Virus record (IMG/VR): IMGVR_UViG_2548876944_000011
Length of the DNA: 7,409 bases
Source of the DNA: a virus
Lineage: Duplodnaviria; Heunggongvirae; Uroviricota; Caudoviricetes
Direction: 5' to 3' (one strand)
The notes under the pieces were generated by a model. It was given only the letters and a program-made list of their open reading frames with translations, ran no database searches and was not told where the DNA came from. Below are positions 1,189-7,409 of this stretch, in pieces (within the stretch, counting starts at the first letter, position 1; each line of letters opens with the position of its first letter). The translations under genes and the position numbers were made by a program.

Positions 1189-1693
1189 ACAGGCTCGTGA
1201 GGCTCTGGATGCCTGGATATGTCGACCAGGAATGACACAGGAGCAGGCGACGATATTAATCACTGAAGCATTCTGGGCTTTGAAAGAGCGCCCGAACATC
1301 GATGTTCAGCGTGTCACATATGAAGGTGGCGCGATTGATCAGCGAGCGCTTGGCGTTAATCGAGTGAAGATATTTGAACGCTGGAAGGCTATCGACACCA
1401 GGGATAAGCGTGAAAAGTTCACGGCGCTAGTGCCTGCAATTATGGAGGCTATCCGGATTAATGATTTCAGGTTGTATCGTGAAATTACTGACGGAAAAAG
1501 CATCACGTGCATGATCGCCGGGTTAAACAAAGAATATGGCGATGTGGTGGAGTCCGGACTGCTTTTTGCTGATCCTGCCGTAGTGGATCGTGAAACTGAC
1601 GAACTTATAGAAAAAGCAATTGCTTTCAAACTTGCGTATCGACAGCAATACCAACAAAAAGCTGGATGGAATTATGAGCCTTCTTTTTGCTGA
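1172..1693 (+). CDS. YdaT-like prophage early protein, 173 aa (family reported as a functional analogue of lambda CII)
   Basis: Track ORF. The ATG overlaps the dicC 3' end by 17 nt, suggesting translational coupling. The central segment WKAIDTRDKREKFTALVPAIMEAI resembles the conserved REK...L.PAI region I recall from Rac YdaT. The family assignment is from memory, not a search. Confidence 0.7.
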   Translation: MKITPEQAREALDAWICRPGMTQEQATILITEAFWALKERPNIDVQRVTYEGGAIDQRALGVNRVKIFERWKAIDTRDKREKFTALVPAIMEAIRINDFRLYREITDGKSITCMIAGLNKEYGDVVESGLLFADPAVVDRETDELIEKAIAFKLAYRQQYQQKAGWNYEPSFC

Positions 1694-2639
1694 ACGCCCA
1701 CTGGTTATAAACACGCAGCTGGCAATGAAAATTGGCTTAAACGAAGCCATTGTTTTGCAACAACTGCACTACTGGTTGAGAGATACCAACTCCGGCATGG
1801 AATGTGATGGTGTTCGCTGGATTTATAACACAACGGAACAATGGCTGGAACAGTTCCCATTCTGGTCAGAGTCAACGTTAAAGCGCGCGTTTGCAAGTCT
1901 GAAAACGCTGGGGCTTTTGCGTTGTGAAAAGCTCAATAAATCAAAGCGCGATATGACCAATTTCTACACGATCAACTATGGGAGCGAGCTTTTAGATGGT
2001 GGCAAATTGAGCGAATCCATCGGTTCAAAATGCGCCGCTCCATCAGGTCAAAATGACACGATGGAAGAGGTCAAAATGAAACGCTCCATTGGTTCAAAAC
2101 GACCCAATGTCATCGGGTCAAAATGGCCTGATGATCTTACAGAGAATACAACAGAGATTACTACAGAGAATAAAAACACTTTTCGTCCTGAAGCTTCGCA
2201 ACCGGACCCGCAGACGACTGAACAGGATTTTTTAACCCGGAACTCCGACGCGGTTGTGTTTAGTGCGAAAAAACGCCAGTGGGGTAGCAGGGAGGATTTG
2301 GCGTGTGCGCAGTGGATCTGGGGGCGGATCGTGGGTCTCTACGAACAGGCAGCCAGTGATGATGGCGAGATCATGCGACCAAAAGAGCCTAACTGGACTG
2401 CCTGGGCCAATGACGTGCGCACAATGCGGATGCTGGATGGCAGAAGCCACAGACAAATTTGCGAAATGTTTGGTCGGGTTCAGCGAGATCCATTCTGGGT
2501 AAAAAACATCATGAGCCCGTCAAAGCTCCGCGAAAAATGGGACGAACTGGTCATCCGCCTGGGACGTTCACCTGTACAGCGTTGTGTTAATCATATTTCT
2601 GAACCGGATACAGAAATTCCGCCTGGTTTCAGAGGATAA
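1674..2639 (+). CDS. phage replication initiator (lambda O-like replisome organizer), about 321 aa
   Basis: Track ORF 1620..2639 begins at a TTG. The first ATG (1674) gives MSLLFAERPLVINTQLAMKIGLNEAIVLQQLHYWL..., a typical N-terminus for this kind of protein. The C-terminal W-rich region (AQWIWGRIV...NWTAWANDVRTM...FWVKNIMSP) resembles the conserved C-domain of such proteins. Iterons lie inside the gene, as in lambda O. Confidence 0.8.
   Translation: MSLLFAERPLVINTQLAMKIGLNEAIVLQQLHYWLRDTNSGMECDGVRWIYNTTEQWLEQFPFWSESTLKRAFASLKTLGLLRCEKLNKSKRDMTNFYTINYGSELLDGGKLSESIGSKCAAPSGQNDTMEEVKMKRSIGSKRPNVIGSKWPDDLTENTTEITTENKNTFRPEASQPDPQTTEQDFLTRNSDAVVFSAKKRQWGSREDLACAQWIWGRIVGLYEQAASDDGEIMRPKEPNWTAWANDVRTMRMLDGRSHRQICEMFGRVQRDPFWVKNIMSPSKLREKWDELVIRLGRSPVQRCVNHISEPDTEIPPGFRG
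2015..2130. repeat. five direct ~23-bp iterons (candidate origin of replication inside the initiator gene)
   Basis: Core GGT(T)CAAAA(T/C)G occurs with TCAAAA starting at 2025, 2048, 2071, 2094 and 2118 (spacing 23, 23, 23, 24 bp). Three units are preceded by TCCAT. At protein level this appears as the repeated IGSK motif. Confidence 0.6.
2139..2174. repeat. three 12-bp direct repeats ACAGAGA(A/T)TAC flanking the iterons
   Basis: ACAGAGA occurs at 2139, 2151 and 2163 in an A-rich stretch immediately 3' of the iterons. This is the position where a DNA-unwinding element sits in lambda-type origins. Confidence 0.45.
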
Positions 2640-2679
2640 GTGTTGATTTCAGGTCATGAGGTAATTTTAAGGGGGACTT

Positions 2680-3102
2680 GTGGCAAAAGTTTTTACACAA
2701 GAAGAGCGGGAAAAAATTAAATGGCAGGTGGTGGAACTCGTGCGCCAGAGCGGCCGTGAGACGTTACGGCAACTGGAAGCTAAAACAGGTGCGACTAGAT
2801 ATCTGATGAGCGTTCTTGCCAGAGAGCTGGTAGCCAGTGGCGATGTATACAACTCCGGCTACGGGTTATTCCCCTCTGAACAGGCGCGTAAGGACTGGCA
2901 AAACGCCCGCAAAAAACTCTCGAGGGCAAAGGTGAAGAAACCTGCTGTGGTTGATCCGGACCTTATCTGGTCATCACCTGACGGAGAAATACGTCGCTAC
3001 GACAGTCGCCTAAACATAATCTGTCGCGAGTGCCGGAAGAGCGAAGTTATGCAGCGCATACTGGCTTTCTATCAGGGTAATTTTCAGGACGTGGCGCAGT
3101 GA
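2680..3102 (+). CDS. hypothetical phage early protein, 140 aa, possibly DNA-binding
   Basis: Track ORF with a GTG start preceded by AAGGGGGA at 4 nt spacing. The segment TLRQLEAKTGATRYLMSVLARELV looks HTH-like. Its stop overlaps the next gene's start in GTGA. No confident family assignment. Confidence 0.65.
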   Translation: MAKVFTQEEREKIKWQVVELVRQSGRETLRQLEAKTGATRYLMSVLARELVASGDVYNSGYGLFPSEQARKDWQNARKKLSRAKVKKPAVVDPDLIWSSPDGEIRRYDSRLNIICRECRKSEVMQRILAFYQGNFQDVAQ

Positions 3103-3455
3103 GTGCACCGGCAACCATTCTTGATATGTGCTGTGGCAGCCGCATGTTCTGGTTCGATAAGTCTGACGAACGGGCGATATTCAGCGATATCAGAAAAGAA
3201 GGATACACATTACGCAATGGGAGACGCTTGATTATCAGCCCTGACATTATCGCAGATTTTCGTGCATTATCATTTGCAGACGCATCTTTTTCGATGGTTG
3301 TATTAGACCCTCCGCATCTTGAGAGTGTTGGTGATAACGCCTGGATGGGAAAGAAATATGGACGGCTGAATAAAGATGCCTGGCGTGATGATTCGCGACA
3401 GAGATTTAAAGAAGCCTTTCGGGTGTTGAGGCCGCACGGCGTTCTGATTTTTTAA
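3099..3455 (+). CDS. class I SAM-dependent methyltransferase-like protein (DPPH motif), 118 aa as read; probably truncated by an in-frame TAA
   Basis: Track ORF with a GTG start coupled to the upstream stop. It has a motif-I-like ILDMCCGSRMF, an acidic residue after the second strand (IFSDI), a catalytic-type tetrapeptide VVLDPPHL, and RVLRPHGVLIF. The fold is incomplete at the TAA (3453..3455). The same frame continues for 29 sense codons (WNETQIPVSQILALTDRKPVICQRTGKKR) to TAA 3543..3545. Confidence 0.6.
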   Translation: MSAPATILDMCCGSRMFWFDKSDERAIFSDIRKEGYTLRNGRRLIISPDIIADFRALSFADASFSMVVLDPPHLESVGDNAWMGKKYGRLNKDAWRDDSRQRFKEAFRVLRPHGVLIF

Positions 3456-3717
3456 TGGAATGAAACGCAAATACCGGTAAGCCAGATTCTGGCACTGACA
3501 GACAGAAAACCTGTTATCTGTCAACGAACAGGGAAAAAACGATAAAACCCACTGGATTATTTTTATGAAAGAGGCATCCAGTGAGTAGGTTCGTAAGGTT
3601 ACAGATACGTATATCTGAATAATTAAATTCAGTTCTGTAAATAAAATTTAATCCTTAACCGGATGGATTTCTGCACCCTCAGAACATCAGGAGGCCGCCC
3701 GAAAGGGCGGTAGTGAA

Positions 3718-3828
3718 ATGCGAAAGCTCAAAATTATTATTGAAACGGGAATAGCTGGTGGAGATTTTGAGGATGTATTCGAAGTGGACGATGACGCAAC
3801 ACCTGAGGAAATTCATGACGGAGCATAA
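3718..3828 (+). CDS. small acidic ORF, 36 aa, uncertain
   Basis: ATG 3718 to TAA 3826, MRKLKIIIETGIAGGDFEDVFEVDDDATPEEIHDGA. It is preceded by a GAAA-tetraloop hairpin (3694..3710) and a distant AGGAGG. The frame continues acidic (EIFFNYCNYSYHEIKDDEEEQSG) for 23 more codons after the TAA. Confidence 0.25.
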   Translation: MRKLKIIIETGIAGGDFEDVFEVDDDATPEEIHDGA

Positions 3829-3877
3829 GAAATTTTCTTTAACTACTGCAATTACTCATACCACGAAATAAAAGACG

Positions 3878-4069
3878 ATGAGGAAGAACAAAGTGGCTGA
3901 TTTTTGTTCAGCTAAATATAACATCAGTTTTGAAGAGCGGGATGAACTATTAATGGACTATGGTGAGTTACGCGGTGGAAGTGCTGCTGATGTCGAATCC
4001 TAGCGTGATGACTATGAAGCGGGAAAAACTCCGGTCGAAGCATATTGTGATGAGTGGGGCGATGAATGA
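3878..4069 (+). pseudogene. small phage ORF interrupted by an in-frame TAG (about 63 codons if read through)
   Basis: ATG 3878 (or GTG 3893 with GAGGAAG upstream) gives ...VADFCSAKYNISFEERDELLMDYGELRGGSAADVES, then TAG 4001..4003, then RDDYEAGKTPVEAYCDEWGDE to TGA 4067..4069. That stop overlaps the next ATG in ATGA. Confidence 0.3.
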
Positions 4070-4353
4070 GCGAGATTAATTATCAGGAAGGGCATGAAAC
4101 GGCGGGGCAAGCAAAACCAGTGGCATGGCGATATCGCTACGTGAAAAAAGGCGTTACGGACTTTCAGGGGAAGTAGTGGTCTGGTGACTGGAAATATGTA
4201 CCGAAAAAAGAGGATTGTAACGACAGGCCGAACTATCAAATTCAGGCCTTATTCACTGCCTCACCAGTCCCAGTTACATCAGAAGAACTGGTTAAAGCTG
4301 TGCACTTTTATGAACAACTAAAACGCGAAAATCCACCAACATCCGGCAACTAG
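4066..4353 (+). pseudogene. small phage ORF interrupted by an in-frame TAG (95 codons if read through)
   Basis: ATG 4066 gives MSEINYQEGHETAGQAKPVAWRYRYVKKGVTDFQGK, then TAG 4174..4176, then WSGDWKYVPKKEDCNDRPNYQIQALFTASPVPVTSEELVKAVHFYEQLKRENPPTSGN to TAG 4351..4353. The start is coupled to the upstream frame by ATGA. Confidence 0.35.
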
Positions 4354-4607
4354 ATTAATGGATTAACTATGTCGGTTAAACGACCAGCCAACTGAAAAAG
4401 CGGAAACCTGATTACAGGTTGCCAGATAAGGCAATGAGCTACCTGGCGCGGAACGGACTGATAAGTATGGGGAATGTTTTACGATGAACCTTTAGACTAA
4501 AGAGTTTGTAACGCTATGTAAGTGATTTTTTCTGGTTTAGATATTTATATGTCCGGCCAAATTGAGGTGTGTTTAAATGTAATTGCACATTGATTGTAGG
4601 AGGAATA

Positions 4608-4787
4608 ATGAAAAACGCATTGCAGTTTTTGTTTGTTGCGTTCTGGTTGTTCGCATCATGTATGCCCATCATCTTCACAGCAAGGTATATGGAAAAAGTT
4701 GATGTTTTGATATTAATATTTGGATATATAAATGCCCTTTTTTTAGGGGTGTTCATGGCGGTCATGTGCATTGAATACTGGCGGTAA
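4608..4787 (+). CDS. small hydrophobic protein, 59 aa, two predicted transmembrane helices; function unknown
   Basis: Track ORF 4569..4787. The internal ATG 4608 is preceded by a consensus AGGAGG at 6 nt spacing, giving MKNALQFLFVAFWLFASCMPIIFTARYMEKVDVLILIFGYINALFLGVFMAVMCIEYWR. Two ~22-residue hydrophobic stretches are separated by RYMEKVD. The local sequence is strongly AT-rich compared with the replication genes. Confidence 0.55.
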   Translation: MKNALQFLFVAFWLFASCMPIIFTARYMEKVDVLILIFGYINALFLGVFMAVMCIEYWR

Positions 4788-5093
4788 ATACAGCGAACTC
4801 CATTGGTTTAGTTGGATATTTACTGTGCTGGACAAAAACGGTTTGCGGGGAAATCTTAGTTAAGTAGAATGACTGCGGGTGCTTGAGGCTATCTGCCTCG
4901 GGCATGGACACCAACGGCAGATAGAGAAAAGCCCCAGTTAACATTACGCGTCCTGCAAGACGCTTAACATTAATCTGAGGCCAATTTCATGCTAGACACA
5001 TGTAGGTTAGCCTCTTACGTGCCGAAAGGCACGGAGAAGCAGGCTATTGTTAACACCAAGCTGTAATGTCCCCTTTGAACCATTCTAAAATGT

Positions 5094-5120
5094 CCCCAGA
5101 CAATTCTCTGGGGGATTTTT
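5094..5120 (+). terminator. terminator-like hairpin that pairs the transposase Shine-Dalgarno, just 5' of the tnp ATG
   Basis: CCCCAGA (5094..5100), loop CAATTC, TCTGGGG (5107..5113), then GATTTTT and ATG at 5122. The 3' arm contains the G-rich ribosome-binding site. Confidence 0.45.
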
Positions 5121-5121
5121 C

Positions 5122-6435
5122 ATGATCAAAGAGACTGTTACGATGAGTCATAAGGAACTCCACCGACTTCAGATTATTCAGGAACAAGCTGCGGCACGCA
5201 TTGGCATTTCTATTCGGCAGGTTAAACGTCTGGTGCAACGGTATAGAAATGAAGGGCCTTCTGGTCTGGTTTCCCACCGACGTGGAAAGCGTCCTAATAA
5301 TTCCTTTTCTACTGAATTCAGAGCAACAGTAATTTCACTCCTCAAAGGCCGTTACGCTGATTTTGGACCTACGTTTGCGTGCGAAAAATTGCGCGAGATA
5401 CACGGTTTATCTTTATCCGTTGAAACTCTCAGAAAGTGGATGATAGAAGAGGGGTTATGGCGTGAACGCCGTCGTAAAATTGCCCGTATATATCAACGCC
5501 GCATGCGACGACCATCTTACGGTGAACTGATCCAGATTGATGGCTCACCTCATGACTGGTTTGAAAATCGAGGCCCCAGATGTACACTGATCGTTTTCAT
5601 TGATGATGCCACCAGTGCGTTGATGGCGTTGCGTTTTGTGCCTGCTGAAACAACCCGGGCTTACATGGAAACCCTCCGGGGTTACCTTAATGATCATGGC
5701 GTACCGCTCGCTCTCTACTCTGATAGACACAGTATATTCAGGGTAAATAACCCAGAGCGGGAAGGTGAGCTGACCCAGTTCACTCGTGCGATAAAGACAC
5801 TGGGCATCGAGCCAATCCATGCCAACAGCCCGCAGGCAAAAGGGCGGGTAGAGCGCGCCAATCAGACACTACAGGACAGGCTGGTCAAAGAAATGCGGCT
5901 TCAGAATATCAGTGATATTGAAACAGCAAATGCATGGTTGCCGACCTTTATTGAAGCCTATAACAACCGGTTCGCTACGTCGCCTCGTACTACTGATAAT
6001 GCTCATCTTGATGTGCACCATTCTGAAGAGGAACTGGGTTATATCTTCAGCCTACAGGCGAAGCGCGTTCTGTCTAAAAATCTCACTTTCCAGTACAAAA
6101 GCAGTGCGTTTCAGGTACGCAGTGAGGGCCGGGGATATCGACTTAGGCATTCGGTTGTTACTGTATGCGAGAACTTTGACGGTGAAATTAACGTTCTGTA
6201 TGACGGGAAAGCGCTGGGCTGGGAAAAGTATGTTGATGGCCCGGAGCCTATACCACCGGATGATGAAAAGAGTGTCCATGAACGAGTGGATAATGCCCGT
6301 ATTGATTTACGCTCAAAATACTATGTTAAACCTAAAGCTGACCATCCCTGGCTTACGCGCCGAACGCAAAGTCATCAGCAAGTTAAGCCCCCGAAGTTAC
6401 CTAAAAAGAAGCCTGATCCCGATAAAAAAGATTGA
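5122..6435 (+). CDS. DDE transposase with an integrase-core (rve-type) fold, 437 aa; IS481-like or ISNCY-like, family not assignable by eye
   Basis: Track ORF. N-terminal HTH region (RIGISIRQVKRLVQRYRNEGPSGLVSHRRGKRP). Candidate catalytic triad in QIDGSPHDW, LALYSDRHSIF and NSPQAKGRVERANQTLQDRL. Basic lysine- and proline-rich C-terminal tail. Confidence 0.85.
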   Translation: MIKETVTMSHKELHRLQIIQEQAAARIGISIRQVKRLVQRYRNEGPSGLVSHRRGKRPNNSFSTEFRATVISLLKGRYADFGPTFACEKLREIHGLSLSVETLRKWMIEEGLWRERRRKIARIYQRRMRRPSYGELIQIDGSPHDWFENRGPRCTLIVFIDDATSALMALRFVPAETTRAYMETLRGYLNDHGVPLALYSDRHSIFRVNNPEREGELTQFTRAIKTLGIEPIHANSPQAKGRVERANQTLQDRLVKEMRLQNISDIETANAWLPTFIEAYNNRFATSPRTTDNAHLDVHHSEEELGYIFSLQAKRVLSKNLTFQYKSSAFQVRSEGRGYRLRHSVVTVCENFDGEINVLYDGKALGWEKYVDGPEPIPPDDEKSVHERVDNARIDLRSKYYVKPKADHPWLTRRTQSHQQVKPPKLPKKKPDPDKKD

Positions 6436-6830
6436 AACCAAGATCGATTCGGTTGAGTGCATATCCATTCATAGGGTAGATTCTTAAGTCGCGTTTCTGG
6501 TGTTCATTTTCGGGTGGTTTGTTACTTGTTTTACCGGGGATATGCCAGAAACGCGCTGAGTCAGTCTGGGCGGTGCGCGTAATGAGGCGTTATGGTAAAT
6601 AGCCTATGCTAATGTCCGCTAAGAGCAAGAAGCGGAAGTTGGCAGTTTTGTGGACTGTCCCCACAAAAGTGACTACAGAAATAGTTGCAATTCATAATTG
6701 ATCATGGGTTGTCAGTTAAACTCGTGGCGATTTAAATAGACTAATTGGGAGTGCGTCCATTACTTATATCTTGTAATGTTAACTATCAGAAATGATACAA
6801 AGATAATATGTCTTTAAAGAAAAGGCTGAT

Positions 6831-6857
6831 GGCGAAAAGTGGCCCGATGAGGGCCAC
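6831..6857 (-). terminator. rho-independent terminator of flxA
   Basis: Perfect 7-bp stem GTGGCCC/GGGCCAC (6839..6857) with a 5-nt loop. On the minus strand it is followed by TTTTCGCC. It lies 15 nt downstream of the flxA stop codon. Confidence 0.55.
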
Positions 6858-6871
6858 AATACGGCTGTCAC

Positions 6872-7204
6872 TTAGACGTAAATATCAATGGTGCCAGCGG
6901 TATTTGTATCGTCTTTTTTCTCTTCTTTTTTATCAGGCTGAACTGTCGCGTCTTCATTCTTTTTCTCTGCCTGCTGCCTTAACAACTGCTCCAGTTGAGC
7001 CCAGAGGCTTTCAATTTGCTTCTGTACCAATGCAGCCATTTCTTTTTTCTGCTGTGTCGTCATCCCCTCTTCCGATGAGATTTTCCCAAGCTTTTCAGTC
7101 AGCACCTGAATTTGTCTTGTGATTTTGGCTATTTCTGATGTTCCTTCCGGGGCGGAGTTGTTTGAAATAACGGTTGAGGTATTTCCCTGAATTGTGACAG
7201 ACAT
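6872..7204 (-). CDS. flxA: FlxA-like protein, 110 aa (prophage-borne gene of the flagellar sigma-28 regulon)
   Basis: Track ORF MSVTIQGNTSTVISNNSAPEGTSEIAKITRQIQVLTEKLGK... AGGAG lies 6 nt upstream of the ATG. A sigma-28 promoter lies upstream. Recognised from memory as FlxA. Confidence 0.85.
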   Translation of the reverse strand: MSVTIQGNTSTVISNNSAPEGTSEIAKITRQIQVLTEKLGKISSEEGMTTQQKKEMAALVQKQIESLWAQLEQLLRQQAEKKNEDATVQPDKKEEKKDDTNTAGTIDIYV

Positions 7205-7226
7205 AGATTTCTCCTTTTAAAAAAGC

Positions 7227-7253
7227 ACTATCGGCATGCACAAAAAAATCTTT
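7227..7253 (-). promoter_or_regulatory. sigma-28 (FliA) class 3 flagellar promoter of flxA
   Basis: Minus-strand reading TAAAGATT, 11-bp spacer, GCCGATAG, against the consensus TAAAGTTT-N11-GCCGATAA. It lies about 25 nt upstream of the flxA Shine-Dalgarno. Confidence 0.6.
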
Positions 7254-7387
7254 AATCGTATTTCTTGTGTCATTAATTGTTTGATGTTCAGATTGTTTTC
7301 CTCGCGGGCTGGCGCGCCTCAGAAAGTAAAGCTTGTTGACAGGGGTAAACGTTCGTAGACTGGCCCCCTGAATCTCCAGACAACCAG

Positions 7388-7407
7388 TATCACTTAAATA
7401 AGTGATA
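7388..7407. promoter_or_regulatory. palindromic operator-like site TATCACT-N6-AGTGATA
   Basis: 7-bp inverted arms at 7388..7394 and 7401..7407. The half-site TATCAC resembles lambdoid operator half-sites. It sits at the window edge, so its context is unknown. Confidence 0.25.
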
Positions 7408-7409
7408 GT

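Follow-up and report, generated by a model that had tools for sequence, protein, structure and literature searches.

Where does the mobile element in this prophage begin and end, and what has brought it to its place? The question is raised by a 7,409-nucleotide stretch of DNA from a virus record of the Caudoviricetes (IMG/VR IMGVR_UViG_2548876944_000011), which is called the window in the following and to whose numbering all coordinates refer (plus strand for features that have a strand, unless stated otherwise). It contains a transposase gene that a preliminary description had assigned to a 1849-bp insertion sequence (IS) with a single open reading frame (ORF), extending from 4936 to 6784, with perfect 12-bp ends and long non-coding arms and placed beside a terminator of flxA. 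The presence of a mobile element with a transposase gene, namely one of the ISNCY/IS1202 ISEsa1 type, can be maintained from this description, whereas both claimed ends are wrong. Instead, the sequence from 5048 to 7355 very probably belongs to a unit transposon from the ISEsa1 clade (IS1202 family), of which it makes up the left two thirds and which is inserted at the translation-initiation region of a hok gene. The boundaries of this transposon, its target duplication, its empty site, its cargo variants and its recurrence at one kind of site can be observed directly.

The left end was located by alignments with other replicons. In at least seven contexts sequence identity starts abruptly at 5048, where the element begins with TGTTAACACC..., and leftward of this position the sequences are only 70-90% alike. 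The right end (...TTTGCGTTGACA) lies about 1.9 kb past 6784, outside the window, and is found 58 nt past relE in six copies (L001, L018, L087, L088, L089 and L093). The true left terminal inverted repeat, TGTTAACACCAAGCTGTAATGTCCCC at 5048-5073, is set by this onset of identity and matches the reverse complement of the right end at 19 of 26 positions (22 of 30 over a longer stretch), and the two ends read TGT...ACA. An inner motif, AATGTCCCC, is present at 5065-5073 and again at 5089-5097, corresponding to element positions 18-26 and 42-50; the right end possesses only a degenerate AGTGTCACC at its positions 18-26 as internal copy. Measured between these ends, the element has 3274 bp in the lineage of the window and 3301 bp when intact.

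Both ends are bracketed by a target-site duplication of 15 bp. In the chromosome L001, which shows no difference from the window over 4700-7000 (100% identity), the sequence GGAGAAGCAGGCTAT directly follows the right end (...GTTGACA) and is then continued by G-AAG-CAG of hokD. The left copy of this 15-mer stands at 5033-5047 and extends from the Shine-Dalgarno sequence of hokD through the AT of its start codon. Perfect 15-bp duplications were observed in six copies at five different hok-family loci. Besides the 3274-bp copy in the Qin prophage of L001, with GGAGAAGCAGGCTAT on both sides and hokD behind it, these are 3301-bp copies in Shigella (L018, followed by a Hok ORF), on an IncF plasmid (L087, GGAGAAGAAGGCCAT, followed by a 52-aa hok) and on an IncI plasmid (L088, TGGAGGGGCTATGAT, followed by pndA), a 12,843-bp copy on another IncF plasmid (L089, GGAGAAGTCAGCTAT) and a 6093-bp copy on an IncHI2 plasmid (L093, GGAGAAGAAGGCCAT), the last two each followed by a different Hok ORF. 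A right end at 6677 (...GTGACTACA), with 6641-6780 read as a decayed hok ORF, was also considered and was rejected, as the real Hok ORFs and the 15-bp repeats lie beyond relE.

The corresponding empty site could be reconstructed by joining the left flank of the window to hokD with a single copy of the 15-mer. Many Escherichia coli genomes contain a single gap-free match to this query, the best one at 99.2% identity, and 3830 genomes contain one place that covers at least 80% of it. The syntenic prophage of E. coli SW071618 contains DUF977, a methyltransferase pseudogene, an uninterrupted leader-hokD unit with one 15-mer, rem and DUF968; compared with the filled allele, the identity is 99.1% in the left flank and 89.7% in the right, and no transposase, flxA, ydfV or relBE is found in it. 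Therefore, the element comprises 3274 bp in this lineage, and flxA, which had been regarded as a prophage neighbour of the insertion, is a passenger of the transposon. Also the proposal that the insertion marks a truncation of the prophage had to be given up, as prophage DNA is present on both sides, with DUF977 and methyltransferase genes on the left and hokD-rem-ydfU on the right.

The sequence immediately left of the element, 4877-5047, is the leader of the hokD/sok toxin-antitoxin locus (type I) and is target DNA. The Rfam model RF01794 matches 4877-5048 in full length (model positions 1-157, 104.1 bits, E-value 1.7e-23, gathering score 59), and the AUG with which the model closes falls on AU and the first T of the element. 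The gene hokD (51 aa), which is not contained in the window, stands directly behind this leader in the empty-site alleles L090 and L091 and behind the right end of the transposon in filled ones. In comparison with the Rfam sok/hok model, the hokD leader contains in the loop of a leader stem an insert of 16 nt that forms a hairpin with itself (4948-4963) and is flanked by a 9-bp direct repeat, TTAACATTA; this insert is conserved in the empty-site alleles.

Comparison of the copies reveals a modular structure. Common to all variants are 1610-1620 bp on the left and approximately 715 bp on the right, the latter consisting of the relB promoter, relBE and the right repeat, and the middle alone differs. 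In the window, alignment of the copies places the conserved left module with the transposase, common to the 3.3-, 6.1- and 12.8-kb variants, at 5048-6640 (1610-1620 bp when intact), and past 6626-6640 the copies diverge from each other. From 6641 to 7355 there follows the variant-specific cargo of the 3.3-kb transposon, to which flxA belongs (6872-7204, minus strand, as annotated in L001). L001, L087 and L088 have the block transposase, flxA, ydfV, relB and relE in common, while the 12,843-bp variant (L089, NZ_AP018757.1 135515-148357) carries ncrABCY, chrBA and other genes, and ISEsa2, a cytochrome b and a CDF transporter are found in the 6093-bp variant (L093); there are also variants of 4.6 and 7.7 kb. 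The cargo of this transposon family includes nickel (ncrABCY) and chromate (chrBA) resistance on IncF plasmids and the cytochrome b/CDF pair on IncHI2 and IncFII/IncR plasmids (L093/L094), and a match that includes the IncHI2-type module was found with at least 99% identity in 432 PLSDB plasmids. Sequence matches to the transposase module as such are present in more than 1300 PLSDB plasmids, 578 of which hold most of the module, and the flxA-side region has matches in most E. coli genomes. The left module terminates in an inverted pair, AATGTCCGC (6611-6619) and GCGGAAGTT (6632-6640), the latter being GCGGACATT or GCGGACGTT in other copies. This pair at 6611-6640 (AATGTCCGC ... GCGGA(C/A)(A/G)TT) resembles the inner transposase-site motif of the ends, and it may be a vestige of the right end of an ancestral IS that acquired its cargo afterwards.

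Two more distant relatives are plain ISs, one of 1449 bp in Hahella sp. SMD15-11 (transposase 62% identical at the amino acid level) and one of 1466 bp in a metagenome-assembled genome of the Rhabdochlamydiaceae (50%). They are alike in their ends (TGTTAGCCC... and ...TTGCGTTGACA or ...GGGTTGACA), which are homologous to those described here (TGTTAGCCC...TTGACA), and they generate duplications of approximately 15-17 bp; they differ in being cargo-free, multi-copy and inserted at unrelated sites. The homologous ends and the similar duplications therefore identify the relE-side end as the orthologous right end and a duplication of approximately 15 bp as a property of the clade.

With these data, two narrower delimitations of the element can be judged. 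The 1849-bp single-ORF IS of the preliminary description was based on a perfect 12-bp inverted repeat that indeed exists and brackets the transposase ORF, with AGTTAACATTAC at 4936-4947 and its reverse complement at 6773-6784 (pair I13). Likewise, the two copies of TTAACATTA at 4938-4946 and 4964-4972 and the small hairpin GCGTC-ctgcaa-GACGC at 4948-4963 are where they had been described. Nevertheless, we regard this model as practically untenable, since the empty site and the other copies already refute it. A perfect inverted pair of 12-mers at least 500 bp apart occurs in 7% of dinucleotide shuffles of 4700-7000, and shuffles of the whole window contain on average 1.85 such pairs, with at least one in 76% of them and two observed in the real sequence, so that the repeat is no more than chance for this window. 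Nor does it travel with the element. The left 12-mer, both copies of TTAACATTA and the hairpin are all present in the element-free alleles L090 and L091 as parts of the hokD/sok leader, the TTAACATTA pair and the small hairpin being an insertion in one of its hairpin loops; the right 12-mer (6773-6784) belongs to the variant-specific cargo, is confined to 3.3-kb copies and is found in the plasmid copies L087 and L088, which are without the left 12-mer; and both are missing in the 6.1- and 12.8-kb variants. Absence of the 12-bp repeat from other copies was what the preliminary description had itself named as a refutation. The supposed non-coding arms are thus the full-length hok/sok leader (4936-5047), which occurs without the transposase in empty-site alleles, and the tail of the conserved transposase module together with cargo. 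No direct repeat flanks 4936 and 6784, in contrast to the perfect 15 bp around 5048 and the position 58 nt past relE, and the promoter and terminator scan did not flag the flxA terminator. A role of the 12-bp repeat in long-range pairing of hok mRNA, similar to ucb/dcb, was rejected as well, because its right copy belongs to the cargo, a stretch that uninterrupted hokD loci do not contain.

Somewhat less remote, yet still very improbable, is the second delimitation, in which a 1.6-kb ISEsa1 as it is catalogued (5048 to approximately 6640, without duplication) has inserted into the hok start codon, and flxA, ydfV and relBE are resident Qin genes. ISEsa1 is listed in the third subgroup of the IS1202 family with 1609 bp, inverted repeats matching at 15 of 22 positions, no target duplication and no known target (Harmer, Pong and Hall 2023, PMC10132070). 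The entry agrees with the facts that the sequence common to all variants stops at approximately 6626-6640 and that the inverted pair AATGTCCGC/GCGGACATT is found at that boundary. However, not only the transposase but also flxA-ydfV-relBE is missing from the syntenic empty site. In three replicons it is the entire 3.3-kb unit that the 15-bp duplication encloses, and in two more it encloses the 6.1- and 12.8-kb units. The relE-side end, moreover, is orthologous to the right ends of the relatives that are plain ISs, and among the copies examined none ends at approximately 6640 with a duplication. As the copies diverge after 6626-6640, this is probably why ISEsa1 was catalogued as 1609 bp without duplication; its right end was likely set too early in the sequence, which would explain why neither a duplication nor a target was noted. 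The name of the transposase given by PGAP and the length of the left module (1610-1620 bp versus 1609 bp) indirectly connect ISEsa1 with the unit transposon found here, which differs from the entry in its mobile unit of 3.3-12.8 kb, its inverted repeats matching at 19 of 26 positions, its 15-bp duplication, relBE and further cargo, and its preference for hok initiation regions.

This preference is apparent at several levels. Four further hok-family loci, two of IncF, one of IncI and one of IncHI2 plasmids, harbour the element or its cargo variants at the equivalent position, each time flanked by a perfect 15-bp duplication. In a survey of left ends that used one genome per species, at least 12 diverged loci have a hok leader directly next to the left end, and in six further loci the Rfam sok model ends at the left junction. 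Aligned at the junction, 12 distinct hok leaders show a conserved ...TGCCGAAAGGCAAGGAG, with the cut 15 +/- 1 nt after GGCAA. A scan of metagenomes for right ends found 15-mers of the hok Shine-Dalgarno type (15 distinct ones) at 67 of 77 informative junctions, with diverse Hok ORFs next to them; the remaining ones are eight unrelated single sites and two deletions into hokD. In L022 the same 15-mer was used in inverted orientation. A scan of viral contigs returned almost only the single hokD insertion and contributes little independent evidence. Because copies with other cargo occupy the same position of many hok loci, the element strongly prefers this site.

Two observations on other junctions can be added here. 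On a Kluyvera chromosome (L019, 2337-2450, minus strand), a match to isrO, an Hfq-binding small RNA of Rfam (RF01397, 58.8 bits), spans the left junction of an ISEsa1-type element, which suggests that the isrO family overlaps either the end of the element or a preferred non-hok target. A relative of 78% identity in L036 (about 2390-2425) is located at the extreme 5' end of a hok transcript (...TAGAATAGCCGTGGCG|) and not at the Shine-Dalgarno sequence and ATG, and is a second kind of association with a hok locus.

A different explanation for the recurrence at hok loci would be recombination through flanking hok homology, or selection for disrupted hok genes, instead of targeted transposition. 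It draws on copies with hybrid flanks, namely L153, which has a pnd leader on the left and hokD on the right, and L094 and L005, which have GGAGATGTATGGGTCC on the left and GGAGATGAAACTACC on the right, as well as on the distant relatives at unrelated sites. Transposition fits the data better, because the 15-mer differs between loci and is on either side the locus's own sequence; pndA, for example, has two copies of TGGAGGGGCTATGAT and an IncF hok two of GGAGAAGTCAGCTAT, and an exchange in the outer flanks would not give such locus-specific pairs. The junction is also constant, to within +/- 1 nt, in its position relative to GGCAAGGA in at least 12 diverged leaders, and the insertion in L022 has the same 15-mer inverted. 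We thus consider this alternative improbable as an account of the insertions, though the hybrid flanks indicate that homologous recombination between copies in different replicons moves the element as well.

Several points nevertheless weigh against our interpretation as targeted transposition of a hok-seeking unit transposon. Its right end lies beyond the window and is deduced from chromosomes that are identical over 4700-7000, and the copy in the window is itself interrupted at 7356. About 10 of the 77 right junctions and the left junctions L011, L019 and L079 are away from hok sites, so that the specificity is a preference and not absolute; L079 is a full element of 2575 bp at a non-hok site with a duplication of 13 of 15 positions. 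In the IMG/VR contig L124, a 3301-bp copy at a non-hok site is flanked only by a 6-bp repeat, CGCCTT, which does not fit the 15-bp rule. To these come the non-matching flanks of L094/L005 and L153 and the lack of a hok preference in the distant relatives. Many of the copies at the hokD site go back to one inherited event, and raw counts therefore overstate their independence. Finally, the case for transposition is built from sequence comparison.

The transposase gene extends from 5122 to 6435 and encodes 437 aa. The protein matches NCBIfam NF033594 (transpos_ISNCY_2) over residues 14-368 with 456.4 bits at a cutoff of 250, Pfam assigns it N-terminal HTH_32/29/28 domains and a weak rve_3 match, and a sequence search of the PDB returned a single weak match to a retroviral-type integrase core. 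The 446-aa protein of the plasmid copies is named "IS1202-like element ISEsa1 family transposase" by PGAP. With the homologous transposase and the TGT...ACA ends with imperfect inverted repeats (about 22-29 bp in the family), the element shares traits of the IS1202 family, but it departs from the simple IS of about 1.3-1.75 kb with the transposase as sole gene, since the unit of 3274 or 3301 bp also carries flxA, ydfV, relB and relE. Its 15-bp duplication is closest to the 16-17-bp class among the subgroup classes of 5-6, 16-17 and 27-28 bp, and contradicts the catalogue entry for ISEsa1. The element is a unit transposon or transporter IS on an IS1202-family core. No genes for Tn7-like TnsA, TnsC or target selectors are found in the 3.3-kb unit, which holds only the transposase, flxA, ydfV, relB and relE. 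Just upstream of the transposase start codon, the promoter and terminator scan detected a terminator-like hairpin followed by ATTTTT (5093-5114), which overlaps the second AATGTCCCC repeat. This hairpin could block read-through from the hok promoter and insulate the transposase gene.

The copy in the window is probably immobile, because its transposase has a deletion of 9 aa and its cargo contains a second IS. A 27-nt in-frame deletion between short direct repeats (TTCAGGA) at 5170-5183 has removed SINRHITQE, residues 22-30 of the 446-aa protein, near the N-terminal helix-turn-helix; depending on the strain, the same hokD site holds the 3274- or the 3301-bp allele. No homology to K-12, L001 or any other copy extends past 7355; with 7356-7409 another insertion sequence begins, a multi-copy one, which interrupts the transposon between flxA and ydfV, upstream of flxA. 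It begins with TAGACTGGCCCCCTGAATCTCCAGACAACC..., and its 54-mer occurs in 4491 of 5426 E. coli genomes, at a median of three and up to 41 places per genome; we take it to resemble the end of IS2.

E. coli K-12 MG1655 (L092) has retained a different part of the same transposon. Relative to the window it has lost 4.8 kb (1452-6250, junctions 1451/1452 and 6250/6251), a deletion that fused ydfX to the C-terminus of the transposase and took with it the prophage's replication-region genes, the leader of hokD and 1.2 kb from the left of the transposon. What remains is the right part alone, from ydfW to relE, together with the inverted repeat and the 15-mer copy on that side and hokD. What is annotated as "ydfW" (6286-6435; b1567 in K-12) corresponds to the last 49 codons of the ISEsa1-type transposase; in the annotation by PGAP the intact 437-aa ORF appears as two genes, a "partial ISNCY transposase" and ydfW.

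A mechanism can be proposed for how this locus was formed. The transposon is ordered as left inverted repeat, transposase, a variable cargo slot (here with flxA and a part of ydfV), the right module of approximately 715 bp and the right inverted repeat. Its DDE transposase would bind putative sites, the repeated AATGTCCCC-like motifs near both ends, and join the ends to target cuts that are staggered by 15 bp, which would result in the 15-bp duplication. In a Qin-type prophage, the element inserted where translation of hokD starts, and the segment from the Shine-Dalgarno sequence through the AT of the ATG was duplicated. The sok/mok leader stays behind on the left as an orphan that ends AT|TGT without a start codon, and hokD on the right retains a ribosome-binding site and an ATG, both intact, immediately after relBE. 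The result is the classical order relB-relE-hokD (relBEF), and the arrangement matches the known co-transcription of relBE and hokD (PMC5120126). That the transposase itself recognizes hok DNA, where it binds and how expression is affected are points that we infer from the sequences. In this respect we lean towards the view that the transposase recognizes hok initiation DNA (...TGCCGAAAGGCAAGGAG, with the cut 15 bp on) by itself. The elements would then be transposons that seek toxin-antitoxin loci, relBEF of K-12 would be a fossil right end, and the "ISEsa1" entry would be a mis-delimited fragment.

The relBEF operon of the K-12 Qin prophage is the same DNA as the right part of the element. 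The idea that relBE was integrated into hokD has already been published (PMC6379469), and the accessible literature describes no transposon with defined ends, duplication and transposase for this integration. A search of the literature, to which access was limited, also found no description of hok targeting or of the larger transposon, so that within these limits a hok-seeking relBE transposon on an IS1202-family core appears to be undescribed in this form. A parallel in behaviour is provided by the ISAjo2/ISAba32 group, which has a single TnsB-like transposase, TGT...ACA ends and a second internal repeat near the end, and in which no accessory targeting proteins accompany a strong preference for one type of site and, for the most part, one orientation (PMC10132070). 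Those elements differ in being ISs of 1.5 kb that generate duplications of 5-6 bp and insert 5 bp from the XerC sites of dif/pdif, whereas the element described here has 15-bp duplications, hok targets and passenger genes.

A recurrent association of mobile elements with hok loci is shared with IS150 and IS186, whose insertions are of another kind. According to Pedersen and Gerdes (1999), these ISs of other families are reportedly situated at chromosomal hok loci downstream of the hok reading frames. The present insertion, by contrast, is located at the Shine-Dalgarno sequence and ATG and brings along a second toxin-antitoxin system. Insertions of IS150 and IS186 at chromosomal hok loci are also mentioned elsewhere (PMC7232551).

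These results correct the limits of a widespread enterobacterial element that carries relBE and, in some variants, genes for nickel and chromate resistance or cation efflux, and they bear on a question left open for the IS1202 family, namely why ISEsa1 has neither a duplication nor a target. They also provide a mechanistic origin for the classical relB-relE-hokD operon and the "rearranged" hokD locus. With hok initiation regions, a second class of natural targets is added for a transposase family that is known for targeting dif/pdif without helper proteins, and target recognition by single-protein transposases becomes directly testable. If the transposase indeed recognizes hok DNA by itself, these elements would cut a type I toxin off from its antisense control, substitute their own type II system relBE, and ride on the hok/sok loci of conjugative plasmids and prophages.

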